Shown piece after piece: positions 3,687-63,949 of a DNA stretch of 64,000 nucleotides. Both the position numbers and the translations under genes were made by a program. The DNA is taken from positions 16,736 through 80,735 of the forward strand of contig JAIRQA010000040.1 of assembly GCA_031256715.1 (NCBI GenBank), read 5' to 3'. The stretch is from Coriobacteriales bacterium (GTDB taxonomy: Bacteria > Actinomycetota > Coriobacteriia > Coriobacteriales > UBA8131). Position 1 is the stretch's first letter; each line of letters starts with the position of its first letter. The notes below the pieces were generated by a model. That model did no database searches and had not been told where the DNA came from. It saw nothing but the letters and a program-made list of their open reading frames with translations.

Positions 3687-4427
3687 ATGCAGAATGAAGA
3701 AGAAAATGCCATTGGACTTAGTGATGGTGTAAGTGATAGCGTTTATGCTAGTGCAAACGGTGACGGTGGCGGCTGTGCCGGCAGCGGTGCTAGCGGTGGT
3801 GCCAGCGGCTGTACTAGCGGCGGCGCCAAAGGCGACTCAAGTGATAGCGCCATTGCATGCAAAACTGCCATTATTGTTGTAGACATGCTGAACGACTTTG
3901 TAACCGGCTCGTTGGCCTGCGAACGCGGAGCAGCTATTGTACCTGCGCTGGCTCGTTTACTAGATGGGGCGCGGCGTGCTGGTTGCGATGCCAACGGGAT
4001 TGCGAATGTGCCCATAGTTTACGCCAACGACTGTCATTTACCTGGTATCGATCACGAACTTAAACTTTGGGGAGAACACGCCATGAAAGGTACTTATGGT
4101 GCCGAGGTCGTGTTAGAACTTGCACCAAAAGCGACAGACTACATCGTGCCCAAGCGCCGTTACAGCGGTTTTTTTATGACTGACATGAACATTTTACTGC
4201 GCGAGCTTGGGGTTAATACCGTGGTGATGACTGGCTTGCACACCCACATGTGTGTGCGCCACACAACCGCCGATGCCTACATGCACGGCTATGATGTGGT
4301 GGTGGCAAGCGATGCCACTGACGCATTTACAGAACAAGATTACCTGAGTGGCTTAGAGTACCTACGCACAGTTTACGGCGCCATGATTGCCACAGTAGAC
4401 GAGATTGTTGATGCCTTTTCGCGTTAG
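3687..4427 (+). CDS. isochorismatase-family cysteine hydrolase (nicotinamidase-like) with a G/S-rich N-terminal extension
   Basis: AIIVVDMLNDF (catalytic Asp), KRRYSGF (Lys) and GLHTHMCVRHT (Cys) spacing typical of the isochorismatase/PncA fold. GAGGGA RBS. Confidence 0.75.
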   Translation: MQNEEENAIGLSDGVSDSVYASANGDGGGCAGSGASGGASGCTSGGAKGDSSDSAIACKTAIIVVDMLNDFVTGSLACERGAAIVPALARLLDGARRAGCDANGIANVPIVYANDCHLPGIDHELKLWGEHAMKGTYGAEVVLELAPKATDYIVPKRRYSGFFMTDMNILLRELGVNTVVMTGLHTHMCVRHTTADAYMHGYDVVVASDATDAFTEQDYLSGLEYLRTVYGAMIATVDEIVDAFSR

Positions 4428-5762: not shown

Positions 5763-7283
5763 CTATCCTTGTATCGCGCCCGCCTGAATAAACGCGCGAT
5801 ATAGTGCCAGGCGGTCTTCGATAACAGCGGCAAGACGCTGAATGGCTTCCTGAATTTTTTCGGGCTCTTCGTAACAAAAAGCAATGCGCATGGCGTTTTT
5901 GCCCTTGCCAGACGTTGCGGGATAACAACCGCTGCCAGGCACGAAAGTGACGCCCTTCTCTAAAGCTACACTAAGCATTTGATCGGCATCCATGTATTCG
6001 GGTAGCGTCACCCAGACAAAGAATCCGCCCTGAGGGTGCGTCCAGGTGGCTTCTGGCGGGAAACACTCATTTAGGGCGGCAAGCATAGCATCGCGGCGCT
6101 CGTGGTACTTGTTGCAAAGCTTAGTTAGCGTTTCTTGCCAAGGCGTGTCATTAAAGTAGTGCTCGACGATAACCTGATTAAGAGCAGAACCGCAAAGGTC
6201 TGTACCCTGCTTAACCATATTAATTTTTTTTAGGATGGGGTGCGGTGCGATTATCCATCCTGTGCGCAAGCCAGGCGCAAAGACCTTAGAGACTGTTCCA
6301 AGATAGACTACGTCGTTGTCTAAAGAGCGCAGAGCAGGCTGTGGCTCGCCGCTATAGCGCAGGCGACTGTAGGGGTCGTCCTCGATAACTAAAATATCAT
6401 ATTCGTGCGCCAGCTTAAGAAGTTCATGACGGCGATCGGAACTCATAGTAACGCCGCCGGGATTTTGAAAAGTTGGAATGGTGTAAATGAATTTGGGCTT
6501 TTTCTGGTTTGCTGAAGTTGCGCCGGCACAGAGTGTGGCAAGCTTTTTGGCCAACAAGTCTGTGCGCATGCCGTGTTCATCAAAGGGGATGGTGTGAATT
6601 TCCGGCTCGTATGCGCTAAATGCCTGAAGCGCGCCCAGATAGGTTGGGCCTTCGGTGATAATTATGTCGCCCTTGTTAATGAAGGCTTTGCCTAGCAAAT
6701 CTAGTGCTTGTTGTGCGCCTGTGGTAACAATAACGTCTGAAGTGGTGATATGAATGTTATTGTCGCGCATCAGATTAACTATGACTTGCTTGGTTTGTGT
6801 GCGACCAGTGGTGTCGCCGTACTGAAGACCAGCTATGCCCTCTGCTAAGACTGCGTTTTTGGCAACCTCGGCAACTTCTGCAAGAGGAAGACGCGCAATG
6901 TCGGGCATGCCGCCAGACAATGAAATAATGTCAGAGCGCGAAGCAGCTGCAAATAGATCGCGCACGGCACTTGTGCGCATAGAATCTACGCGTGATGCAT
7001 AGTTTCCTTGCCACTCGTCAAACTGAATGAGGCCAGGGACGTTCGCATGCCGCGGAGTCTTCAAATCCGTGGTAAATGGCATTGTCGCGTCTTGCGCTGT
7101 CGCACCTGGCGTTGCTGAAGGTGTGGCTGGTGGCGTTGTCGCACCTGGCACTGGTGTTATCGTGGCTGGTGGCGCTGTCGCACCTGGCGTTGCTGAAGGT
7201 GTGGCTGGTGGCGTTGTCGCGCTTGCAACTGTTGTTGTGGCTGGTGGCGCTGTCGCACCTGGCACTGGTGTTGTTGTAGACAT
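5763..7283 (-). CDS. class I/II PLP-dependent aminotransferase (2-aminoadipate/aromatic aminotransferase-like). The first 67 codons are a T/P/A-rich tandem repeat, and the true start may be ATG 7082.
   Basis: SAVRDLF...ISLSGGMP, YTIPTFQNPGG and GTVSKVFAPGLRTGW (PLP-Lys region). The N-terminal PGATAPPATT repeats are encoded by tandem DNA repeats at 7083-7283. Confidence 0.8.
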   Translation of the reverse strand: MSTTTPVPGATAPPATTTVASATTPPATPSATPGATAPPATITPVPGATTPPATPSATPGATAQDATMPFTTDLKTPRHANVPGLIQFDEWQGNYASRVDSMRTSAVRDLFAAASRSDIISLSGGMPDIARLPLAEVAEVAKNAVLAEGIAGLQYGDTTGRTQTKQVIVNLMRDNNIHITTSDVIVTTGAQQALDLLGKAFINKGDIIITEGPTYLGALQAFSAYEPEIHTIPFDEHGMRTDLLAKKLATLCAGATSANQKKPKFIYTIPTFQNPGGVTMSSDRRHELLKLAHEYDILVIEDDPYSRLRYSGEPQPALRSLDNDVVYLGTVSKVFAPGLRTGWIIAPHPILKKINMVKQGTDLCGSALNQVIVEHYFNDTPWQETLTKLCNKYHERRDAMLAALNECFPPEATWTHPQGGFFVWVTLPEYMDADQMLSVALEKGVTFVPGSGCYPATSGKGKNAMRIAFCYEEPEKIQEAIQRLAAVIEDRLALYRAFIQAGAIQG

Positions 7284-19134: not shown

Positions 19135-19714
19135 ACTTTACTCCTATCGTTGTTGGTTGTTAATGCGCACTGCAAATTTGAGGGTGCGGACATTTTTTGG
19201 CTTCGCCTAGGTTGCCAGACCCGGGCTTTGCCTATGCTTACGTGTTAAGTATTTGTCCACCGCCTTGCGGCAGCACAAATTGTTACAAAAGCCTATTTGC
19301 TCTTTCGCATTTGTCCACCGCCTACTTAGGAACTAAAAAAAGTCCCTGTGGCAATATATTCCTCTAAGGAGCATTTGCACAGAGTGGTTCACAGGGTGTT
19401 TTGTACTTGTATTTGTAACGTGAAGTATTTTTCCGTTTGCTTGTAGCAACATTACAGTAGATAAACGTGATTGTATGGGTGATTGTATAGGTGATTGTAC
19501 AGGTGTTTAGAATAATTGTGGTGAGTTGTCGTAACGGCTAGCCAAAACGTCTGTCTGCGACGCGCGGGAGCAACAGTAAGTTGTGTAGCTTGTTATATCA
19601 CTTACGTCCGTCGCATAAAGTCCTCATAAAAAATTTCGCAAGTTAGGTTCATGTAACCTAAATATGGCATTAGGATGGTATACTAAATAGTTTGTAAGAA
19701 TGGCACGGTCGCTA

Positions 19715-19935
19715 GCGCGAGCAACGGCTATCTTTATAAGCGTGGGCAACGGCTGTCTTTGTGAGCGTGGGCAACGGCTGCATTTGTGAGCGTGGGCAAC
19801 GGCTGCATGCCCGAGCACACGTCGCGACAGTATACGCGAGCACACGTCGCGACGGTATTCACGAGCACACGTCGCGACAGTATTCACGAGCGCACGACGC
19901 GACTGCATGCCCGAGCGCACGCCACGACTTTGCGC
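19715..19935. repeat. about 25-bp tandem array (about 9 units, two sub-families) upstream of trkA
   Basis: GCGTGGGCAACGGCTG....TGA units, then GCACACGTCGCGACAGTATTCACGA units in strict 25-bp register. The ORFs on both strands here are repeat artefacts. Confidence 0.85.
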
Positions 19936-34340: not shown

Positions 34341-34510
34341 TGTACGTTATGCGCGGGGCAAATGGCGTTTTTTTGCCGCACAACAACCTGGGACAAATGA
34401 CGTTTTGTGCCACACAACAACCTGGGACAAATGACGTTTTGTGCCGCACAACAACCTGGAGCAAATAGCGTTTTGTGTCGCACAGCAATCCAATGCCACT
34501 CTCTTAAGCG
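34341..34510. repeat. 34-bp tandem repeat x4-5 between convergent genes
   Basis: GCCGCACAACAACCTGGGACAAATGACGTTTTGT units start at 34375, 34409, 34443 and 34477, plus a partial copy upstream. Confidence 0.85.
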
Positions 34511-48780: not shown

Positions 48781-51414
48781 GTGGCCGATACAATCGATAT
48801 CCATGCCGAGGGTGTCGAGGTTAAGAAGTCATGCTGTTATTTCTGTCACCAGAATTGCGGCGTGCTTGCGTATGTTAAGGATGGTAAGGTTCTAAAAATT
48901 GAAGGTGACCCAACCCATCCCACCAACCAAGGCGGTCTTTGCTGTCGTGGCAACATAGCACTTCTGCACCTCGATCATCCAGCGCGTATCAACCACCCGC
49001 TTAGGCGTGTGGGCGCAAAAGGCGAGAACAAGTGGGAGAAAATCCCCTGGGAACAGGCAATTTCAGAAATTGCCGAGCGTCTAAATGCGATTAAAGCAGA
49101 GAGCGGAGCAGAGGCTGTGGCGGGTGCCGCTGGTACACTTCGCACCGATGATTGGTCGCGCAGACGCTTCTTTAATATGTTTGGTACTCCAAATGTCTTT
49201 CATAACGCACTTCTGTGTTGGATTCCCACATTTATGGTAGAAACCGCAGTTAGCGGCTGGAGCCCCTTCGAGACCGACCTGGGCGACAGCCGTTGTGTTA
49301 TTCTATGGGGTTTTAACCCGGGTGCCTCGGCAATGCCGGGCATGCGTGGCTACTCTGACTTACGCAAGGCAGGCATGAAGATTATTGTTGTAGACCCACG
49401 TTATTCAGAGACTGCCGCACACTCTGACCTTTGGCTGCCATTGCGACCAGGCTCAGATACAGCTTTGGCTTTGGCTATGATTAATGTCATTATTATGGAA
49501 AGTCTTTACGACGAGGAGTTTGTTAATAACTGGTGTGTTGGTTTCGATGAACTCTGGGATCACGTCATGGAATACACTCCAGAATGGGCATCTGAGCACA
49601 CTTGGTTAGAACCTGAACTTATTCGCGAATGTGCTCGCATGTATGCTAAAAACACACCCAGCAATATCCAGTGGGGTTGTACTGCAGACCAATTGGGTAA
49701 AACATCTGGAGCCGGCATGCACGCACGTGCCATTTTGCGTGCCCTTACCGGAAATCTTGATCGTCCGGGTGGCGACTTGATGCCTGGTCCTTCTCACACT
49801 TATGTTACAGACGAAGAGCTAGAGGCCAACGATTGGCTGCCCGAAGAGCAAAAGGCAAAGCAGATTGGTGCCAATAAGTTTAAGATGACATCTTGGCCTG
49901 GCTACCAGATGATTGCCGACACTGCCCGCGAGACCTGGGGCAAGGCTCCCACGGCCGAGTGGATGTGCGAGGCTCATGGTCCATCAGTCTTTAAGGCCAT
50001 ACTTACGGGTGACCCTTACCAAATACGCGCACTTATTGTTAGCGCTACCAATCCGGTTAACTCTTACGGCGATTCTAAGATGACGCTTGAGGCACTTAAA
50101 AAGGTGGAATTTTTGGTAACCTGCGAGTACTGGATGACTCCCGCCGCAATCTATAGCGACTACGTGATGCCTATCGCCGGTGCCCTAGAGCGTCCTATCG
50201 TTCACAACAACTATGGCGTCACCGATCACCTAATAGCCTCGCAGCGTGCTATTCAGCCGCTATATGAGCGTCACACAGACTACAACTTCTGGCGCGACTT
50301 GGCGCTAGCTACAGGCCAAGACGTTGACCAATGGCCATGGGAGACCTTAGAGGACGCATTCTACTATGTAACCTATCCGCTTAACGAGCAAGGTTACGTG
50401 CATGGATCGTATGATGAATTTGTCGAGAAGTACCGCTTCTTCTATCCCCCAGTTCACTATTATGGTTATGGACGAAACGGCTTTTGCACTCCTTCGCGTC
50501 GCGTAGAACTAAAAAGCTCTATTTTGGAGGAGCTGGGATATCCAGCGCTACCCACTTGGATAGGACCGGCAGAAAACGAGATTGACGATCCTGATGTTGC
50601 AAAAGAATATCCACTTGTGCTTACAACTGGTGGCGGATTTATGCCATATCATCATTCTGAGCAGTTTAACATTCAGTCTGTGCGTTTCTTGCGCCACGAG
50701 CCTTACTTTACCATCAATCCAGAAAAAGCAGACGAACTGGGCATTAAAGATGGTGATTGGTGTTGGATAGAGACTCGCCGTGGGCGTATTCGTCAACGTG
50801 CGAACGTAGAGCCGTCTGTAGACAAGCGCGTTATTTATGCTCAGCGCGGTTGGTGGTATCCAGAGCGCCAGATTGCTCCAGGAGCTGTTGTTCCCGATGA
50901 GCCTTTTGGTTGCTTAGAGAGTAACGTTAATGTGCTATCTTCTGTAGATGACGAGCACTGCGACCCCATTGGCGGCAGCTGGGCGAATCGTGGTCTTCTC
51001 TGCAAGGTTTACAAAGTAGATTATTGGGACGAGGTAGAAACGCAGTTCTCTATACCAGGTTCTTCATCTGAGCCAGGCATCACCGTACCGCCATCTAAAC
51101 AGAAGCTAGCGTACGAGCCAATTCCCTATGACCCCAAGCCCGATTTTGAAGTTCCCGAGGGGCTTACTTGGGACAAGAAGACCAAGTACGCTTGGGATTT
51201 AGAGCTAGGTTTGTACTATGATAAGGATTCTGGCTGGTTGATTCATCCAGAGACACAGGTTTATTATGACCTTTATACAAAGTATGCCTATGACCCTACC
51301 GATAACACCTTGGTAGACGAGGCAACCGGCGTTCACTACGACATGGAGACGCGCCAACCCATTGGCGGCGTTGCTCCAGTTTCTGCACCAGCAACCACGG
51401 AAGGAGGGGAGTGA
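48781..51414 (+). CDS. molybdopterin (bis-MGD) oxidoreductase catalytic subunit with no signal peptide and a 131-aa C-terminal extension
   Basis: N-terminal CCYFCHQNCG...CCRG 4Fe-4S motif starts at residue 18, with no RRxFLK. Molybdopterin-binding body. GTG start after AGAGAGGAAAC, with no in-frame upstream start. The tail at 51019-51411 is Y/D/W-rich. Confidence 0.85.
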   Translation: MADTIDIHAEGVEVKKSCCYFCHQNCGVLAYVKDGKVLKIEGDPTHPTNQGGLCCRGNIALLHLDHPARINHPLRRVGAKGENKWEKIPWEQAISEIAERLNAIKAESGAEAVAGAAGTLRTDDWSRRRFFNMFGTPNVFHNALLCWIPTFMVETAVSGWSPFETDLGDSRCVILWGFNPGASAMPGMRGYSDLRKAGMKIIVVDPRYSETAAHSDLWLPLRPGSDTALALAMINVIIMESLYDEEFVNNWCVGFDELWDHVMEYTPEWASEHTWLEPELIRECARMYAKNTPSNIQWGCTADQLGKTSGAGMHARAILRALTGNLDRPGGDLMPGPSHTYVTDEELEANDWLPEEQKAKQIGANKFKMTSWPGYQMIADTARETWGKAPTAEWMCEAHGPSVFKAILTGDPYQIRALIVSATNPVNSYGDSKMTLEALKKVEFLVTCEYWMTPAAIYSDYVMPIAGALERPIVHNNYGVTDHLIASQRAIQPLYERHTDYNFWRDLALATGQDVDQWPWETLEDAFYYVTYPLNEQGYVHGSYDEFVEKYRFFYPPVHYYGYGRNGFCTPSRRVELKSSILEELGYPALPTWIGPAENEIDDPDVAKEYPLVLTTGGGFMPYHHSEQFNIQSVRFLRHEPYFTINPEKADELGIKDGDWCWIETRRGRIRQRANVEPSVDKRVIYAQRGWWYPERQIAPGAVVPDEPFGCLESNVNVLSSVDDEHCDPIGGSWANRGLLCKVYKVDYWDEVETQFSIPGSSSEPGITVPPSKQKLAYEPIPYDPKPDFEVPEGLTWDKKTKYAWDLELGLYYDKDSGWLIHPETQVYYDLYTKYAYDPTDNTLVDEATGVHYDMETRQPIGGVAPVSAPATTEGGE

Positions 51415-51416
51415 AC

Positions 51417-51992
51417 ATGACCCGTTACGCAATGGTTATGGATCAGCGCCGCTGCATTGGTTGCCAATCTTGTACGGTTGCCTGTCGCACTTGGAACGAG
51501 CTTCCATTAGATATTTTATATAATCCAGTTGTTGGCGAAGGTGTTGTTGGCGAGTTTCCACATGTACACCAGACTTTTACTCCGCTTATTTGCATGCACT
51601 GTGACAATCCTCCATGTACAATTTGCTGCCCATGTAAGGCATCGCAACAAGATGAGGATGGTATTGTTTGGGTAGAGTCCGAGAAGTGCATGGCTTGTAA
51701 GGCCTGTGTTAACTCTTGCCCTTATGGCGCTCGCGACGTGAGCGCATTAGATGCGCCTTTGCATAGCTATGTTCGCAAGTGCAACTTTTGCAAAGATCGC
51801 GTGCGCGAGGGTGAATTACCCTACTGTGTGGCTACCTGCCACCAAAAGGCACGTATTTTTGGTGATTTAGACGATCCTAATTCTGATGTTTCTAAGCTTG
51901 TTAATGGTCTAAACACTAATCGTATCTTCCCCGAGCTGGGCACTGATCCCCAGGTCTACTACATTCCAGATTTGGGAGGTGTAAAGCTATGA
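51417..51992 (+). CDS. 4Fe-4S ferredoxin-type electron-transfer subunit (DmsB/PsrB-like)
   Basis: MTRYAMVMDQRRCIGCQSCTVAC..., further CxxCxxCxxxCP groups, and RIFGDLDDPNSDVSK. Confidence 0.88.
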   Translation: MTRYAMVMDQRRCIGCQSCTVACRTWNELPLDILYNPVVGEGVVGEFPHVHQTFTPLICMHCDNPPCTICCPCKASQQDEDGIVWVESEKCMACKACVNSCPYGARDVSALDAPLHSYVRKCNFCKDRVREGELPYCVATCHQKARIFGDLDDPNSDVSKLVNGLNTNRIFPELGTDPQVYYIPDLGGVKL

Positions 51993-57312: not shown

Positions 57313-58977
57313 TTAATCATCTGAATGCGTTAACTCTAAGAGGTCAATTAACTCTTGTCTAGAATGCACATTGGTTTTCTGATAGATGCGCTGCCTGTGA
57401 GTGCTTACTGTGCCAGCAGAGATATTTAGTGATGCCTGAATATGTGAAGTGTCCCTGCCTTTAATTAGGTGAACTAAAACTTCGGTCTCGCGTTGGGTTA
57501 GTAAAAAGCGGGATGCTAGCTTCTTACAACGCGATTGAAGAGCGCCCAAGCGTCCGCCATAACCTGTAGTAATGGTAACAACGTTGCGTTCCGGCAGAAT
57601 AAAAGCATAGGTAATAACTAGCAAGATAGTAAGAATAGAGACGATGAAAGCCGAGGAAGTTGTAAGTACTCCCGTGGCAGTAGTGCCCATTGCAATTGCG
57701 TTAGACGCTGCGTCTGTCGCCGCGGTTATTGTGCTTGCAGCTGTACCAGATGCCGCGCCAGCGGCTGCGTCTGTCGCCGCGGCAATTGTGTCTGCAGCTG
57801 TACCAGATGCCGCGCCAGCAATTGCGTTAGTCCCAAAGGCATCAACAAGATTCATAAAAGGCAGCGGAGGCTGAAGCCCACCAAGAAAGACACCAACAAC
57901 CCAGCCGGCACGACCAAGCCCGAATGCACGAAGTGGAGCGACATGATAGCGATAGCAGATATTAGAAAGCGCTATCCAAAAAATTAACTCGAAACAGCTA
58001 TAGCCCACATTGATCATTATAGAGGTCAACTGCCAGTAAGTACTGCCTAGCCACGTACAGGAAAGTACAGAGGCTATCATAAAAACAAGCACAAAGCGAT
58101 AGATAAATCCAATATCTGAGCGTTTTAGAACAAGGATTGAGGCAGCAATAAGAATGACCAAAATTAATGTTGAACCAACTTGAGTAATTGCAAACGTAAG
58201 CTCTAGCGACGGCACAAATGTGCTGTTCTGAACAATTGCGCCGCTGCTAGCCGCAAACGAAAGCTGCTTTTGAACGCCAACAACGGCAGCATGAACAAAG
58301 CTGATTATTAGTGCGGCAAAGCAGATGCGCAGCGCCCCTGTCTCTCCCTCAGGTGAAAACTTGGTTTTAATAGAAGCAGCGGGGATGTCTGCGTACTTCT
58401 CGACATTATTTTTACTTGAAGAGTACCTAAGAGCTAAAGCAGAGAGCAGTGGCAAAAATGCGCCAGATATGACATAAAAAAGATTAGACGTAAAGAGCAT
58501 GAAAAGCGCATAAATTACTATTGCTAATGTAAAAGCTAAAGCTGAGTGCAGCTGCGCCATGGCGGGCTCGGTTTTTCCATACTGTTCTGCCCAATAAAAG
58601 AGCAACAGACCAGAGCCAACCCCGGTAAATAATCCACAAAGATAGGGGACGGCGGGAATGGTGACAAGCTCTGTTGCCGCTAACAATAAGGATCCCACAG
58701 ACATTAGAAGCGGGCTGGCAATTTTAAGTGCACGCGTTTGCATGCATTGCCTTAGCTTGTTGGGCAGTAGTACTCCGCAAATCATGACGCCTACAAGAAG
58801 CAGCAGCGACAGTGGATAAATAACATTGGCTTCGTCGTTAACGTGGTTATTAGTGATAAATATATTTGCCGAGAAGAAAAAAGTCGCTATCCATGCACGA
58901 TGGAAAGCGAAGCCTAGTACTTTTGGGTTAAGCACTTCAGAAAAGCTTGATTTTATAAACCCAACCGCTTCATTCAT
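57313..58977 (-). CDS. LuxR-family transcriptional regulator with a polytopic N-terminal membrane domain
   Basis: Multiple TM helices, an A/T/G-rich duplicated insert (AGAASGTAA.TI.AATDAA x2), and a C-terminal HTH (QRETEVLVHLIKGRDTSHIQASLNISAGTVSTHRQRIYQK). Divergent from the reductase operon. Confidence 0.85.
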   Translation of the reverse strand: MNEAVGFIKSSFSEVLNPKVLGFAFHRAWIATFFFSANIFITNNHVNDEANVIYPLSLLLLVGVMICGVLLPNKLRQCMQTRALKIASPLLMSVGSLLLAATELVTIPAVPYLCGLFTGVGSGLLLFYWAEQYGKTEPAMAQLHSALAFTLAIVIYALFMLFTSNLFYVISGAFLPLLSALALRYSSSKNNVEKYADIPAASIKTKFSPEGETGALRICFAALIISFVHAAVVGVQKQLSFAASSGAIVQNSTFVPSLELTFAITQVGSTLILVILIAASILVLKRSDIGFIYRFVLVFMIASVLSCTWLGSTYWQLTSIMINVGYSCFELIFWIALSNICYRYHVAPLRAFGLGRAGWVVGVFLGGLQPPLPFMNLVDAFGTNAIAGAASGTAADTIAAATDAAAGAASGTAASTITAATDAASNAIAMGTTATGVLTTSSAFIVSILTILLVITYAFILPERNVVTITTGYGGRLGALQSRCKKLASRFLLTQRETEVLVHLIKGRDTSHIQASLNISAGTVSTHRQRIYQKTNVHSRQELIDLLELTHSDD

Positions 58978-59142
58978 TTTTCTTACCTTTATCGCAGCAA
59001 CTTGACCTTTAGTTTAATAGCATATCATACTTCCTGATGACATGATTTGTGAACAATCATGTGCCATATAAGATGTGTCCTAACAGACGTACTTGTTATC
59101 ATAAGAACGCAGAAGCGCTTATAAGAACTTAGAAGTTTGCGA

Positions 59143-59358
59143 ATGTGTGCCGAACGTGCTTGCAGGTGTGAGCAAGTGTTGGCGCAGCGCTATGTGTGCC
59201 GAACGTGCTTTCAGGTGCGAGCTTGCGCCAAACGAAAAATCAGGCGCAAGCGAACACCATGAGCCAAACGAAAAACCAGGCGCCAGCGAGCACGAGTTAG
59301 CGTTGGCGTAGCGCAATGCGCGACGAACGCGCTTGCAGGCGTGCGCAAGTGTTAGCGC
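59143..59358. repeat. degenerate tandem repeats in the LuxR-reductase divergent spacer
   Basis: ATGTGTGCCGAACGTGCTT(G/T)CAGGTG x2, AAACGAAAAA(T/C)CAGGCGC(A/C)AGCGA x2, then a related GCGCGACGAACGCGCTTGCAGGCGTG. Confidence 0.8.
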
Positions 59359-59405
59359 TTCTCAACATTATAAGCGGATAGATTACCAACAGATAGGAGG
59401 TTCAG

Positions 59406-62312
59406 ATGAAATTGTCCACAATGACAAGACGCAGCTTTTTAAAGTCTGCGGCAATAGTGGGCGCGGCTACCGCTTTAAGTGGCACTAGCGTGCCGCAGGC
59501 TTTAGCCGAAGACGACTTGGTAGACACTAAAGACGACGTAAAAGTAATACGCACGGCCTGCAGGGGCTGTGGGAAGATGGAATGCGGAGTTTTGGTCACT
59601 GTTCGCAATGGTCGTGCAATTAAAGTAGAGGGCGACCCCGATGCGTTTGCCAGTGACGCTAACTGCTGTTCTAAGTCGCAGGCGTCTATTCAGGCGTGCT
59701 ATCATCCAGATCGCTTAATGTATCCTATGAAGCGCACGAATCCCAAGGATGCCTCTGATCCTGGTTGGGTTCGCATCAGTTGGGATGAAGCCTTTAAGCT
59801 TGCGGCAGATAACATTCAATCCTTAAAAGACAAGTATGGCGGCGAGACATTTTATTCTATGGTAGGAACTAGTCGCGTTTGGGCAATGGGTGGCCTTATG
59901 GCTTGGCCGCAGATTTTGGGCACACCAAACACATTGCAGGCGTATCAGATTTGCAAAGGTCCACGACATTATGCTACAAGGTTGGTATCTAACAGAGCTT
60001 TTAGTTGGATGGCAACGGTAGATAGGCCTCGAGTATTTGTGCAATGGGGAGGTGCCTCAGAGATATCTAATTACGATGACTCCTGTCGCACCACTGTAGA
60101 TTGCGCGGTAAAGGCAGACAAGCACATTGTTGTAGATCCTCGTATGGCTGGCATTGGGCGTCAGGCCGACTATTGGATGCATCTACGACCTGGTACCGAT
60201 GCCGCTGTGGCTATGTGCTGGACAAATGTGATCTTAGAAAATGATCTTATAGATCATCTGTTTGTTAAACGTTGGACGAATGCACCTTTCTTAGTAATGC
60301 CAGGCGAAGCAACATTTTCTAGCGTGCAAGCCTATGGGCCAGGACGCACATGGGAGCTTAAGACCAGGCTGCTTAAAGAGTCAGATGTTGTAGAGGGTGG
60401 TAGCCCAACACGTTTCATGGTTTGGGACACACTTGCTAATAAGCTAACATACTTTGATACTATTACTGGTCTTTGGGAGAACGAGCCGCCATTTACACCA
60501 CCCACCAAGGGTAAAGAAGCACGTCAGGACAACTTGATGCCAGGTGTTGCCAAAGGCTTTGTTCCAGACCCAACTCCATTTAACCCAAAGATTGATCCTG
60601 CCATATATGGCGAGTTTGAGGTAACGCTAGCAAATGGAAGCAGCGTAAAGGTACGCCCTGTGCTAGATGTTTACGCAGAGCGCTGCCGCGAGTACACACC
60701 CCAGAAGGCAGAGGTTATTACAGGTGTTCCTGCCAGTCAGTTAGAAGCTGCGGCAAAGGCTTACGCAACACGACTAGACCCAGAGTCTGGTTATGGTAAT
60801 GGTGGTATTCAATACATGCTTGCAGTAGAACATGCCGCTACCGCTATTCAGAACTGCCGCGCAATAGATGCCATTACTGCTCTTACCGGTAACTATGATA
60901 CTCCTGCAGGACAGCGTGGTCCTACGATGGCGCCGGTAGATGGTGGATTCACGCCATTTGCGTTTATGATTCCTGGTGCTGCCATGCAAGGGCATTTCCC
61001 CGATAGCTCTAAAGAGATAGGCGACGACGAATTTCCCGTGAATCGTTGGTGGGGCGGCTGGGCAGACGCCAATACTCTTTATAGGGCAATGGAAACAGGC
61101 AAACCTTATCCAATAAAGGGCGGCGTTAACATGGCAGGTGACTTTATGAACATGACTAACGCTAATGACAATTGGAATGTCTTGCAAAAAATGGAGTTTA
61201 TAATTGAATGCAATCTATGGCACGCGCCATCATCAGATGTAGCAGACCTGCTTTTGCCAGCCTGGCATTGGCTAGAGGTAAACTGCTCGCGTGTGTCGCA
61301 AGGTTCTTCTGGCGCTTTTGGAGCCAACATCCGCTGCGTAGAGCCACCAGCAGACACGCTTTGGGATCCTTTGATAATCATGGGCGTTGCAAAGGCAATG
61401 GGCATTTATTACGCCCCCGACCCCGAAAATCCTTGGCCAGGATCTTTACCGGATAATTGGGAGCCGGCTGAGCAATTCATTTTAGACAATGCTGTTAAGG
61501 GAACAGGCAAGAGTTGGAAAGAGTATGCCGCCGAATTTACCAAGAATGGCTGGTGGGATGCTAAGGTTGAGGAGCCTAACCGCTGGGGCACTTATAGGCG
61601 CTACGAAACAGGCTACATTATTGGTGGCTCGGCAGGCATGATGGGCGGCGAGCCAATACCGCCAACCCCTGGCTGGAACACTCCAACAAAGAAATATGAG
61701 TTGTGGTCTACTATTATAGAATCACACTATCTTAATGGCGAGTTTGACCTTCCAACTTATAGTGAGCCTCCGCATTCGCCTATAAGCGATCCAGAAACCG
61801 CAAAGGATTATCCACTTATTGTTACTACGGGCAGGCGAATTCCGGTGTACTTTCACTCTGAGCATCGTCAACTGCCTTGGTGCCGCGAGCTTTGGCCAAC
61901 GCCTCGTTGCGAGGTTAACCCCGAGGATGCCGCTGAGCTGGGAATAGAGCAAGGTGATTGGATTTGGATAGAAACCAAATGGGGCAAAGTGCGTCAAGTT
62001 GCCGATTTGTACTATGGCATTAAGAAAGGCACAATCTGTTGCGAACATCAGTGGTGGTTCCCAGAACTAAACGAATCTGGCCATGGTTTTCAGCTTTCGG
62101 GAATTAATTGTGTTAACGATCGCGACGCGCAGTGTCCAATCTGTGGCGCTTCAAACCTACGTGCCTATCTGGGCAAGATATATAAGGCTACTGCAGAGAA
62201 TTGCCCTGGAGGCAAAGTGGTGCCATGCGCGGCAGATGGTACGCCAATTATTACATCAGCCGCAGACCCACGCCTGAAAGAGTGGTTGCCAACTTATGAG
62301 GGAAGGGAGTAA
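59406..62312 (+). CDS. TAT-exported molybdopterin (bis-MGD) oxidoreductase catalytic subunit (968 aa)
   Basis: MTRRSFLKSAAIVGAATALSG twin-arginine signal, CRGCGKMECG... Fe-S motif, and a molybdopterin body paralogous to 48781-51414. AGGAGG RBS. Confidence 0.88.
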   Translation: MKLSTMTRRSFLKSAAIVGAATALSGTSVPQALAEDDLVDTKDDVKVIRTACRGCGKMECGVLVTVRNGRAIKVEGDPDAFASDANCCSKSQASIQACYHPDRLMYPMKRTNPKDASDPGWVRISWDEAFKLAADNIQSLKDKYGGETFYSMVGTSRVWAMGGLMAWPQILGTPNTLQAYQICKGPRHYATRLVSNRAFSWMATVDRPRVFVQWGGASEISNYDDSCRTTVDCAVKADKHIVVDPRMAGIGRQADYWMHLRPGTDAAVAMCWTNVILENDLIDHLFVKRWTNAPFLVMPGEATFSSVQAYGPGRTWELKTRLLKESDVVEGGSPTRFMVWDTLANKLTYFDTITGLWENEPPFTPPTKGKEARQDNLMPGVAKGFVPDPTPFNPKIDPAIYGEFEVTLANGSSVKVRPVLDVYAERCREYTPQKAEVITGVPASQLEAAAKAYATRLDPESGYGNGGIQYMLAVEHAATAIQNCRAIDAITALTGNYDTPAGQRGPTMAPVDGGFTPFAFMIPGAAMQGHFPDSSKEIGDDEFPVNRWWGGWADANTLYRAMETGKPYPIKGGVNMAGDFMNMTNANDNWNVLQKMEFIIECNLWHAPSSDVADLLLPAWHWLEVNCSRVSQGSSGAFGANIRCVEPPADTLWDPLIIMGVAKAMGIYYAPDPENPWPGSLPDNWEPAEQFILDNAVKGTGKSWKEYAAEFTKNGWWDAKVEEPNRWGTYRRYETGYIIGGSAGMMGGEPIPPTPGWNTPTKKYELWSTIIESHYLNGEFDLPTYSEPPHSPISDPETAKDYPLIVTTGRRIPVYFHSEHRQLPWCRELWPTPRCEVNPEDAAELGIEQGDWIWIETKWGKVRQVADLYYGIKKGTICCEHQWWFPELNESGHGFQLSGINCVNDRDAQCPICGASNLRAYLGKIYKATAENCPGGKVVPCAADGTPIITSAADPRLKEWLPTYEGRE

Positions 62313-62400
62313 ACATGACCAGATATGCGATTGTTCGCCTGAAAGAGTGGTTGCCAACCTATGAGGGAAGGGAGTAGACATGACCAGATATGCGATTGTT
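62271..62400 (+). repeat. 65-bp perfect-register tandem duplication (2 mismatches) spanning the catalytic-subunit stop and the Fe-S-subunit start
   Basis: 62271-62335 and 62336-62400 both read CGCCTGAAAGAGTGGTTGCCAAC(T/C)TATGAGGGAAGGGAGTA(A/G)ACATGACCAGATATGCGATTGTT. Confidence 0.95.
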
Positions 62401-62964
62401 ACTGACGTTGACCGCTGCGTTGGCTGTCTAGGTTGCTCGGTGGCTTGCAAGACCGTTAATGCTGTGCCAATAGGGCAGTTCTGGAACAAAACTCTACGCA
62501 TTGGGCCAAATCCAAAAACAGAGGGCGGTCACTGGCCAGATGTCGAGCTATATTATCTGACCATTCAATGCCAGCATTGCGAAAATCCTCAGTGTGTAGA
62601 GGTCTGTCCTACACAAGCGTCGCAAAAGACTGCCGATGGTACGATACAAATAGACAAACAGCGTTGTATTGGTTGCCAATTTTGCGTCATGGCTTGCCCT
62701 TACAATGTACGTTATTTAAATGAAGAAGAAAAAGTTGTTGAGAAGTGCACTTTGTGCGAGCAACTTATTGCTGATGGCAAAGTTCCACAATGCGTGTCGC
62801 AGTGTGGTGGACGTGCCCGCTATTTTGGCGACCTTGATGACCCAAATTCTGATGCGTCAAAAATCCTTGCAGAGACAGACCCAACAAAAGTTTACTCTTT
62901 GCCAGACGTTGGCAATAAGCCTAGTTTAAGATATATCCTACGTGAAATGAAGTGGAGGGGATAA
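62380..62964 (+). CDS. 4Fe-4S ferredoxin-type electron-transfer subunit (DmsB-like)
   Basis: MTRYAIVTDVDRCVGCLGCSVAC..., CQHCENPQCVEVCP, CIGCQFCVMACP and RYFGDLDDPNSDASK. Confidence 0.88.
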   Translation: MTRYAIVTDVDRCVGCLGCSVACKTVNAVPIGQFWNKTLRIGPNPKTEGGHWPDVELYYLTIQCQHCENPQCVEVCPTQASQKTADGTIQIDKQRCIGCQFCVMACPYNVRYLNEEEKVVEKCTLCEQLIADGKVPQCVSQCGGRARYFGDLDDPNSDASKILAETDPTKVYSLPDVGNKPSLRYILREMKWRG

Positions 62965-62967
62965 AGC

Positions 62968-63840
62968 ATGGAAATTCAATGGCCATTGATTATCTTCACG
63001 CTCTGTATTTGTTTAAGTTCCGGCACGTTTTCTTGCCTTGGTTTGTTAAACATGCTTAACAAAGGGCAAAAGCTACAGGTATCAGCTACTATTGTAACTA
63101 TGGTTGGGCTTGTGGTTGGCGGCGCAGCATCATTTTTGCATTTGCAACATGCCGAACGTCTATTTAATGGCTTTGGGCATATCACCTCTGGCATTACTCA
63201 GGAGCTGATTGGTATTGCCATACTATTTGTGCTAGCAATAGTTTATCTTGTGCTTGCACGTAAGGGCAATGTGCCAAAATGGCTTTCTGTTGTGACGCTT
63301 GTGTTTGGCTTGGCTATGGTTTTGGTTATGGCAAACTCTTATGCTATGCCTGCTCGTCCGGTTTGGGGCACACCATTGCTACTATTGTTTTACTTAGCGC
63401 AAGCTGTTGCAGCAGGAGGAGCTACAATTTGGCTTTTGGCTGCATTTTGTAAATGTGATGAAGCGATACAGCTGTCGGCGCGTGTAACTGCAATTGGCGG
63501 CATTTTGGTTGTTGTTAGTTTGGCAGCATACGCTGGCTACATTGCATCGATCTCGCTTCCGGCTGTAGATTTTTATATAGATCCAACAGACCCAACAAAG
63601 CAGATTGCCGCCACATCTGGATTTGGCAATGAGCTTGTTGGCGGCTCTTTGGCATCATATTTTTGGAGTTCCCTGATTATTGGTGGTGCCATTGCCGCAG
63701 TGCTTGGTTTGTTAAGGTGGATGCGTACAGACAATCCATTGCCATTTGCCGCAATAGCTCTTGTATGCGTTCTTGCCGGTGGCTTTGTTTTTCGTGTTGC
63801 ATTATATATACTTGGCGTAAGCGCTTTTGTGTTTTACTAA
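62968..63840 (+). CDS. DmsC-like polytopic membrane anchor subunit
   Basis: 290 aa, about 8 TM helices, immediately after the Fe-S subunit. Confidence 0.7.
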   Translation: MEIQWPLIIFTLCICLSSGTFSCLGLLNMLNKGQKLQVSATIVTMVGLVVGGAASFLHLQHAERLFNGFGHITSGITQELIGIAILFVLAIVYLVLARKGNVPKWLSVVTLVFGLAMVLVMANSYAMPARPVWGTPLLLLFYLAQAVAAGGATIWLLAAFCKCDEAIQLSARVTAIGGILVVVSLAAYAGYIASISLPAVDFYIDPTDPTKQIAATSGFGNELVGGSLASYFWSSLIIGGAIAAVLGLLRWMRTDNPLPFAAIALVCVLAGGFVFRVALYILGVSAFVFY

Positions 63841-63841
63841 T

Positions 63842-63949
63842 GTCGCGGGTAGAGTCGCGATTATAGTTGCGACTAGGGTCGCGATTGGAGTTGCGACTAG
63901 GGTCGCGATTGGAGTTGCGGGTAGAGTCGCGGGTAGAGTCGCGATTAGA
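63842..63949. repeat. 12-bp tandem repeat x9 downstream of the reductase operon
   Basis: GTCGCGGGTAGA / GTCGCGATTNNA / GTTGCGACTAGG units in strict 12-bp register. Confidence 0.85.

Follow-up and report, generated by a model that had tools for sequence, protein, structure and literature searches.

A 65-bp tandem duplication across a molybdoenzyme subunit junction in a Coriobacteriia genome rich in small tandem arrays

Within the window, that is, the whole 64,000-nt stretch of DNA that was analysed, the gene for the catalytic subunit of a molybdoenzyme is joined to that for its Fe-S subunit by a 65-nt unit that stands there twice, and a short chimeric open reading frame (the mini-ORF) lies between the two genes as a result. 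The question raised by this locus is whether the mini-ORF is a leader that serves the downstream subunit or the by-product of a duplication that the operon simply tolerates.

The operon concerned is of the DmsABC type, with a Tat signal and Mo-bisPGD domains, a four-cluster ferredoxin, and a DmsC/NrfD-type anchor found in its three genes by Pfam (Table 1). Matches to its proteins are named Coriobacteriaceae or Eggerthellaceae molybdopterin oxidoreductases, and the DmsABC-type enzymes of Eggerthellaceae/Coriobacteriia that are accompanied by LuxR regulators have the same Tat/Mo-bisPGD subunit, 4x[4Fe-4S] subunit, DmsC anchor, and divergent GerE/LuxR gene; the regulator also neighbours the orthologous operons of two relatives (L097 and L098). 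The present enzyme differs from these in that no NCBIfam equivalog cut-off is passed and in that the closest solved structure, acetylene hydratase (2e7z, E 1.5e-52), matches only the N-terminal third of the catalytic subunit. Indeed, the best equivalog for the catalytic subunit, PhsA, scores 191.7 bits against a cut-off of 694, and the curated cut-offs thus give it no DmsA-, PhsA-, TtrA-, or ArrA-type name. The best NCBIfam matches of the Fe-S subunit, namely NrfC, TtrB, DsrO, and DmsB, likewise all fall under their cut-offs; its L097 and L098 orthologues share its length of 194 aa.

Table 1. Features at and around the duplicated junction (positions are those of the window)
Feature	Position	Strand	Description and basis
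LuxR-type (GerE HTH) regulator	57313..58977	-	Divergent, adjoins operon, outside duplication; Pfam GerE 1e-15, residues 493-546
Catalytic subunit, DMSO-reductase superfamily (Mo/W-bisPGD)	59406..62312	+	968 aa, Tat signal; Pfam TAT_signal, Molybdop_Fe4S4, Molybdopterin, Molydop_binding
Copy 1 of 65-nt unit	62271..62335	+	Functional last 13 codons and TAA of catalytic gene, AGGGAG, AC, decoy ATG 62315 and 6 codons
Chimeric mini-ORF	62315..62377	+	MTRYAIVRLKEWLPTYEGRE and stop; 20 codons, 7 aa of Fe-S N-terminus fused to 13 aa of catalytic C-terminus; ORF listing and sequence
Copy 2 of 65-nt unit	62336..62400	+	Non-functional catalytic tail and TAG, AGGGAG, AC, real Fe-S ATG 62380 and 6 codons
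Fe-S subunit, four-cluster ferredoxin-type (DmsB/NrfC/TtrB-like)	62380..62964	+	194 aa; Pfam Fer4_11 6e-25
DmsC-type membrane anchor	62968..63840	+	290 aa; Pfam DmsC 1e-10

Tandem Repeats Finder (TRF) describes 62271-62400 as 2.0 copies of period 65 with 96% matches, no indels, and a score of 246, and a separate repeat search recovered the same two copies (62271-62335 and 62336-62400), in agreement with the preliminary description, which had reported two adjacent 65-bp copies with two differences. The copies are identical at 63 of 65 positions—a match between adjacent segments that chance cannot explain—and stand head to tail with no gap, which is the form of a simple tandem duplication. Each unit is made up of 13 codons (RLKEWLPTYEGRE), a stop, AC, and an ATG with 6 further codons (MTRYAIV), or 39+3+2+21 = 65 nt, and the contents given earlier for each copy (13 codons and stop, AGGGAG, 7 Fe-S codons) agree with the sequence. 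The AGGGAG ribosome-binding-site (RBS) motif, at 62304-62309 in copy 1 and 62369-62374 in copy 2, sits 5 nt 5′ of the ATG at both joints, which read TAA-AC-ATG and TAG-AC-ATG, respectively; the true C-terminus of the catalytic subunit and its TAA stop lie within copy 1. Both differences between the copies are silent transitions, T in copy 1 against C in copy 2 at unit position 24 (ACT versus ACC, both Thr) and A against G at unit position 42 (TAA versus TAG, both stop). The claim that ATG 62315 opens a 20-codon chimeric frame is borne out by the ORF listing: the mini-ORF starts 2 nt past the catalytic stop and ends 2 nt short of the Fe-S ATG, and it stays in frame because 65 − 5 = 60 is a multiple of 3. 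A programmed frameshift or an N-terminal extension of the Fe-S protein was rejected, since the frame opened by ATG 62315 meets TAG 62375 and differs from that of ATG 62380.

A comparison of copy number among relatives, called for in the preliminary description, found a single copy in every relative examined. In the nearest two orthologous operons, L097 (GCA_031256895) and L098 (ERZ28634469), whose catalytic subunits are 94% and 90% identical over the C-terminal half (residues 500-968), the stop lies at 4407 and the ATG at 4410; a third orthologous junction (L099) is likewise single-copy, and in three family-level genomes (G009, G020, and G017) both halves of the query map to one overlapping segment of 64-65 nt, indicative of a single copy. 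The paralogous operons of the same genome do not carry the duplication either, and the paralogous junction previously listed at 51412-51417 as free of it reads TGA-AC-ATG in single copy (51412-51419). A blastn search of the 65-mer against the whole metagenome-assembled genome (MAG) returned the two tandem copies only, plus short matches at paralogous junctions. A metagenome scan with the Fe-S protein found relatives at no more than 68% identity and no conspecific locus, and exact-protein look-ups with the Fe-S and DmsC proteins matched nothing beyond the MAG contig and a single Logan contig from a single run. No genome or contig of the same species turned up in the collections searched. On these sequence comparisons, the duplication is derived and lineage-specific, the single stop-2 nt-ATG junction being the ancestral state. 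Furthermore, all relatives have C at unit position 24 and the nearest relative has a TAA stop, which suggests one derived change in each copy.

The duplication shares with ordinary small tandem duplications and in-frame repeat expansions of bacterial genes, of the contingency-locus or VNTR type, its head-to-tail, spacerless, near-identical copies and its derived state with respect to relatives. It differs from them in its length, which is not a multiple of 3 and is tolerable solely on account of the stop and the start that the unit covers, and in its host, the array density of which is exceptional: 787 TRF arrays (score at least 80) amount to 29.6 per 100 kb, as against 12 arrays in a 385-kb sample of the relatives' genomes (3.1 per 100 kb). 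Young two-copy duplications of 30-200 nt account for 101 of the 787 arrays. At least 96% matches were found in 118, so that the 65-nt repeat, at 96%, falls among the youngest 15% or so, and the earlier word "recent" therefore holds in a relative sense only. Identity is below 90% in 435 arrays, and arrays at 70-90% are abundant. On a crude longest-ORF gene map, intergenic DNA contains 67.6 arrays per 100 kb and coding DNA 17.6; the period is a multiple of 3 in 362 of 387 within-ORF arrays (94%; binomial p ~1e-138), and stop-spanning arrays divide 22/20/19 by period modulo 3, with no such bias. Thus, the 65-nt repeat is unremarkable within this gut-type Coriobacteriia genome, as one of about 800 small tandem arrays. 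Pol I, NucS, and MutS domain V were considered as causes of the excess and set aside—this genome has the Pol I 5′-nuclease domain, at a normal score, NucS is missing throughout the order, and a MutS domain V protein was found here and in one relative only—since none of the three sets this genome apart and absences are unreliable at 78% completeness.

The reading preferred here, with a probability of roughly 0.8, is that a real, lineage-specific 65-bp duplication at the subunit junction is a product of this genome-wide excess, that it is near-neutral, and that the mini-ORF acts as a passive relay. A high rate, or a high retention, of small tandem duplications throughout the genome would have yielded the 65-bp copy; the catalytic gene has kept its native C-terminus and stop through copy 1, and the Fe-S gene its native RBS and start through copy 2. 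A length that is not a multiple of 3 would be tolerated because the duplicated block contains a stop, an RBS, and a start, and both proteins and the stop-start geometry are indeed unaltered by it. The mini-ORF is probably translated, a prediction made because its RBS, start, and first seven codons are the same as those of the real Fe-S gene. Ribosomes would accordingly finish the catalytic gene, restart on the mini-ORF, terminate 2 nt short of the Fe-S ATG, and initiate there once more.

Such a relay would be a doubled form of termination-reinitiation coupling (PMC10666635, PMC6728339, PMC12548453). The junction has the tight-coupling geometry, with only a few nt from stop to start and a Shine-Dalgarno sequence within the upstream ORF, and the single-copy relatives share it; the ancestral stop-AC-ATG with its Shine-Dalgarno sequence inside the upstream gene is the classic tight junction of subunit genes, and the duplication now provides it twice in series. 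The difference from the known systems lies in the interposed 20-codon ORF, formed from the two genes' own ends, for which the relay is predicted from sequence. An untranslated spacer of ~20 nt almost abolishes coupling (PMC10666635), so that coupling could bridge the 67-nt gap only if the mini-ORF were translated, and short ORFs with no role beyond handing on ribosomes are known from other systems, those of the mycobacterial MIRUs being one example (PMC12548453).

The preliminary description had suggested that the mini-ORF could be a translational-coupling leader, and this is possible as a passive consequence of a duplicated RBS, start, and spacing. That it is instead a selected leader, tuning the catalytic:Fe-S ratio by attenuating coupled reinitiation through two serial restarts or by unfolding the mRNA at the real RBS, is unlikely. 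The exact relay geometry, with 2 nt from stop to start at both joints, would suit such a role, as would the strong distance dependence of coupling and the enrichment of tight junctions among subunits of heteromeric complexes (PMC10666635); the copies have, moreover, diverged at two sites with every stop, RBS, and start intact. However, the mini-ORF is missing at the orthologous position in all relatives examined, even in the operons that are 94% and 90% identical, and from the paralogous operons of the same genome, which produces such duplications everywhere, and an in-frame outcome has a prior of one in three. Retention of the TAG implies no constraint, because the frame would otherwise stop two codons on (ACA TGA). 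The predicted RNA fold at the repeat is weaker than that of shuffled sequences (z = +1.55, with 193 of 200 shuffles folding at least as well), and no RNA structure is present; promoter and terminator scans gave no match above shuffles, and no terminator-like sites in 62200-62450. That the duplication has persisted with two substitutions could be a weak sign either of an absence of harm or of its being maintained. Nothing in the sequence indicates selection for the mini-ORF, and its two substitutions are uninformative in this respect; a selected function for the leader thus finds no support in conservation or RNA structure.

A broader proposal along the same lines, and a very unlikely one, is that in this lineage small tandem duplications form with a preference for gene ends, or are kept there since relay mini-ORFs, once translated, let selection retune subunit stoichiometry, the mini-ORF then being a functional ribosome-delivery leader for the Fe-S subunit, a kind of "private MIRU" assembled from the ends of the two genes. 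The MIRU-VNTR loci of Mycobacterium tuberculosis (Supply et al., 1997, in PMC12548453) resemble the present case in several ways: both are tandem units of 40-100 nt at operon junctions in an actinobacterium, in both the small ORF of the unit lies close against the neighbouring genes' stop and start, and in both the expression of the downstream gene would be minimally affected by the insertion. The MIRUs differ in being a dispersed family of related units at many loci and in being thought mobile, whereas the 65-nt unit consists of local gene ends and is private to its locus; the spacing also differs, at +2 nt here compared with a −4 overlap. A dispersed element of the MIRU type was rejected, given that the 65-mer occurs nowhere else in the MAG.

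As to how the duplication arose, no base is shared at the repeat borders, where the flanks read ...CCCA|CGCC... and ...TGTT|ACTG..., and microhomology is therefore 0. Over the 101 young duplications, border microhomology shows a median excess of 2 nt with a wide spread, the exact borders being obscured by mutations and additional partial copies. The alternative offered in the preliminary description, a young slippage event, thus stands as regards a young duplication, which is absent from relatives and is one of about 100 young two-copy cases, but not as regards classical slippage, for which border microhomology is lacking. The two substitutions mean, on a plain reading of the sequence, that the duplication has lasted some time. 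They might instead have been present from the start, had the duplication been born by illegitimate or unequal recombination between diverged alleles—for example, after import from a sister strain—in which case the event would be very recent. Both differences are indeed silent transitions of the inter-strain type, and short tandem repeats are usually lost fast in model bacteria, as judged by repeat-deletion rates in E. coli, which also counts for an origin with the differences in place. Such an origin is nonetheless highly improbable: the 435 of 787 arrays below 90% identity point to repeats that persist and diverge in place in this genome, one derived change per copy fits ordinary drift after duplication, and the second allele was not found in any collection searched.

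The duplication itself is very probably genuine. A Logan contig of 3133 nt (SRR14710896_203726), assembled at k=31, is an exact substring of the window (60762-63894) with both copies and both differences; it represents an independent assembler rather than an independent sample, since the sample behind it is most probably the one that yielded the MAG. No 31-mer across 62200-62470 occurs more than once; the assembly graph therefore runs through this stretch without branching, and the joint ...ATTGTT|CGCCTG... has to be present in the reads. That the repeat is an artefact, in which chimeric reads, or two strain-variant contigs whose overlap was left unmerged, doubled a junction that is single-copy in the true genome, is extremely unlikely: the source is a MAG of 145 contigs and 78% completeness, and silent differences would be expected of strain variants at a single locus, but the second assembler is identical over 3133 nt, the unique 31-mers at the joint cannot come from single-copy molecules, and hundreds of the genome's other arrays contain at least three diverged copies, which join artefacts never produce. 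The independent k=31 contig thus takes away most of the worry over assembly voiced in the preliminary description.

By itself, the finding is of little weight. It shows how a tandem duplication of a length indivisible by 3 can escape the notice of selection, provided that the duplicated block brings a stop, an RBS, and a start with it, and it illustrates the filter acting on such events, by which periods that are multiples of 3 are admitted inside genes and any period is admitted where frames stay unbroken. The locus also calls for caution in annotation, as automatic gene calling may misplace the start of the Fe-S gene or report a spurious peptide. With its order of stop-2 nt-start, 20 codons, and stop-2 nt-start, it is a natural construct for testing a reinitiation relay via a short ORF. 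The locus is of use chiefly as a clean, dated, and outgroup-polarised case of the process that filled this genome with about 800 arrays.

At the junction between the catalytic and Fe-S genes of the molybdoenzyme operon, positions 62271-62400 read directly as two abutting 65-nt copies, with TRF reporting a period of 65, 2.0 copies, 96% matches, no indels, and a score of 246, and a second repeat search of the window returning the same pair. The copies differ at unit position 24 (T in copy 1, C in copy 2; ACT and ACC, Thr in both) and at unit position 42 (A and G; TAA and TAG, a stop in both). Thus, the preliminary description of two adjacent copies with two differences was borne out, and the ORF layout that it proposed matches the ORF listing (Table). 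The 65-nt unit consists, in order, of RLKEWLPTYEGRE, the stop, the dinucleotide AC, and ATG plus six more codons (MTRYAIV). Because 65 minus the 5-nt stop-to-ATG offset equals 60, the mini-ORF falls in frame, a one-in-three outcome. The 65-mer has no occurrence in the whole MAG beyond the duplicated locus. A slippage origin, as suggested earlier, is without support in its classical form, since the duplication borders (…CCCA/CGCC… and …TGTT/ACTG…) share no bases and hence lack the microhomology that classical slippage would leave.

Table. Features of the duplicated junction and subunits of its operon
Feature	Position	Source	Domain matches or role
Catalytic gene (Tat-signal Mo/W-bisPGD subunit)	59406-62312	ORF listing	TAT_signal, Molybdop_Fe4S4, Molybdopterin, Molydop_binding
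Copy 1	62271-62335		
Mini-ORF, 20 aa	62315-62377	ORF listing	
Copy 2	62336-62400		
Fe-S gene	62380-62964	ORF listing	
Four-cluster ferredoxin subunit (product of the Fe-S gene)			Fer4_11
DmsC-type anchor			Third subunit of operon

The host MAG comprises 2.66 Mb in 145 contigs and is 78% complete. An exact-protein look-up with the Fe-S subunit led to a contig of run SRR14710896 in Logan, where each run is assembled separately with k=31; this contig is an exact substring of the window (60762-63894) and contains both 65-nt copies and both differences. Each copy is interrupted by the two differences, so that the copies have no 31-mers in common; every 31-mer across 62200-62470 is unique, which leaves no branch in the assembly graph within the repeat. 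Furthermore, k-mers over the joint ATTGTT/CGCCTG are impossible from single-copy molecules and must therefore be present in the reads, and their presence in the k=31 assembly excludes an unmerged overlap. This run probably derives from the sample that yielded the MAG, and so provides a second assembler and not a second sample. With an assembly artefact, the concern raised in the preliminary description, countered by this independent contig, the duplication is very likely real.

The two-copy state is derived. In the contigs that encode the closest catalytic-subunit homologues, P0002 (MAG GCA_031256895; identity 94%, residues 500-968) and P0003 (ERZ28634469; 90%), the stop of the catalytic gene is at 4407 and the ATG of a 194-aa Fe-S gene at 4410, and the aligned junction is one copy with the layout GGGAAGGGAGT-stop-2 nt-ATG, as here. 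The junction beside an 80% homologue of the catalytic subunit is likewise single copy. In the family-level genomes G009, G020, and G017, both query halves map onto overlapping 64-65-nt segments, indicative of one copy each, so that all relatives examined for single versus double copy are single. Within the window, the paralogous junction (TGA-AC-ATG, 51412-51419) is also single copy, as previously stated. Unit position 24 is C in the outgroups and the nearest outgroup has a TAA stop in the alignment; these states suggest that each copy has probably gained one derived change since the duplication. In the paralogous operon, whose anchor is NrfD-type and not DmsC-type, the Fe-S gene most likely starts at ATG 51417 (MTRYAMV..., compared with MTRYAIV here), and not at GTG 51411, where the ORF listing places it.

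On the scale of the whole MAG, TRF returned 1134 rows, collapsed to 787 arrays (score at least 80) covering 78 kb, or 2.9% of its bases. This density of 29.6 arrays per 100 kb compares with 3.1 per 100 kb (12 arrays in 385 kb sampled) in eight family- and order-level relatives under the same parameters. The commonest period is 36 (126 arrays), 101 of the 787 are young two-copy duplications of 30-200 nt, and 18 lie inside the window (e.g., 7094-7272, 19714-19928, 34355-34488, 57707-57819, and 63850-63949). When classes were assigned against a crude longest-ORF gene map, 387 arrays fell within ORFs, 362 of them (94%; p ~1e-138) with a period divisible by three, and 308 were intergenic (67.6 per 100 kb versus 17.6 in coding DNA). 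A stop codon is covered by 61 arrays, with periods modulo three split 22/20/19 without bias, a start codon by 19, and both by six, the duplication at 62271-62400 among them. This distribution is the signature of a duplication process that is roughly indiscriminate, with a later filter acting against disrupted frames.

A strong shift towards AT marks the MAG: its GC content is 45%, versus 54-66% in relatives, and that of the operon (59000-63900) is 48%, versus 60-61% in the orthologous operons of GCA_031256895 and ERZ28634469; nucleotide identity to the closest orthologous operon is only ~76%, although amino-acid identity reaches 94% over the C-terminal half of its catalytic subunit. NucS, looked for as a cause of the repeat excess, is missing across the whole order, and MutS domain V gave no useful separation of the MAG from its relatives; a Pol I 5'-nuclease domain was found in the MAG. 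A survey of border microhomology over the 101 young duplications gave a median excess of 2 nt with a wide spread, values that mutation and additional partial copies blur.

Several other arrays deserve description. A second junction-spanning duplication lies on contig C107 (17298-17360, minus strand), where a 21-nt unit containing GGAGGTG and an ATGA/GTGA start-stop overlap occurs three times; its period is a multiple of three, and the extra copies give the downstream protein an N-terminal 7-aa repeat, SDGGDVV. On contig C2 (4941-5025, minus strand), two 41-nt units (84% matches), each carrying ATGAGTGATA (MSD...), span a crude-ORF stop as well as the start region of the following crude ORF; the first copy may be either a decoy start or the upstream gene's tail. 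On many contigs (e.g., C11:19045-19601, C86:6276-6845, and C124:4477-4693), numerous arrays and intergenic regions contain a dispersed GC-rich hairpin element (…GGGCGACCGAAGGTCGCCCCTACG…), which looks like a REP-like family separate from the private duplications.

By Pfam-type domain matches, the operon comprises three subunits, and a divergent GerE/LuxR regulator adjoins it. In an NCBIfam equivalog search, no model reached its cut-off, the best being PhsA (191.7 bits versus 694); homologues are named as molybdopterin oxidoreductases of Coriobacteriaceae, Eggerthellaceae, Parvibacter, Adlercreutzia, Gordonibacter, and Slackia. Among solved chains, the closest to the catalytic subunit belongs to acetylene hydratase (2e7z; E 1.5e-52, over the N-terminal third), not to a classical DMSO, thiosulfate, or nitrate reductase. 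The LuxR-type regulator gene carries an in-frame 57-nt x2 tandem duplication (57707-57819; 92% matches). A 12/24-nt array of about 4-9 copies (63842-63949; 72-84% matches) starts 2 nt downstream of the DmsC-type stop codon (63840), and the Logan contig terminates within it, at 63894.

A 65-nt insertion inside either gene would destroy that gene; at the junction, the duplicated block holds the stop, the RBS, and the start, and hence was tolerated: the catalytic gene takes its native end from copy 1, and the Fe-S gene takes its native RBS and start from copy 2. Neither protein is altered (968 and 194 aa), and their lengths equal those of relatives. Because its initiation signals are identical to those of the real Fe-S gene, the mini-ORF, which fills the 67-nt gap, is very probably translated. 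Termination-reinitiation coupling in both E. coli and Haloferax is nearly gone at an untranslated spacer of ~20 nt (PMC10666635), and coupling here would therefore persist only if relayed via the mini-ORF, both junctions of which reproduce the ancestral 2-nt spacing. Ribosomes may also initiate de novo on the Fe-S gene, at the RBS of copy 2.

There is no sign of selection for the two-copy arrangement. It has no conservation in relatives, RNA structure in the region is not unusual (z = +1.55), and a promoter/terminator scan of the region gave no signal above shuffles. The two substitutions are uninformative, since without TAG the mini-ORF frame would still end two codons on, at ACA-TGA; moreover, arrays persist and decay genome-wide (435 of the 787 have less than 90% identity), so that the gain of two changes needs no special explanation. 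Overall, we judge the duplication to be near-neutral (probability about 0.8), and the mini-ORF is a by-product that may passively relay ribosomes.

At mycobacterial MIRU-VNTR loci, tandem units sit where operon genes meet, and their small ORFs are coupled to adjacent genes (PMC12548453, citing Supply et al. 1997). This is the nearest described arrangement, and the 62271-62400 locus works alike; however, MIRU is a dispersed family, whereas the 65-nt unit is private and made from local gene ends, and on the whole-MAG search its membership of MIRU was rejected. The locus fits best among ordinary small tandem duplications, here sited where two genes are translationally coupled: a tidy illustration, not a new kind of element, with the genome-wide overgrowth of repeats being the more notable phenomenon.
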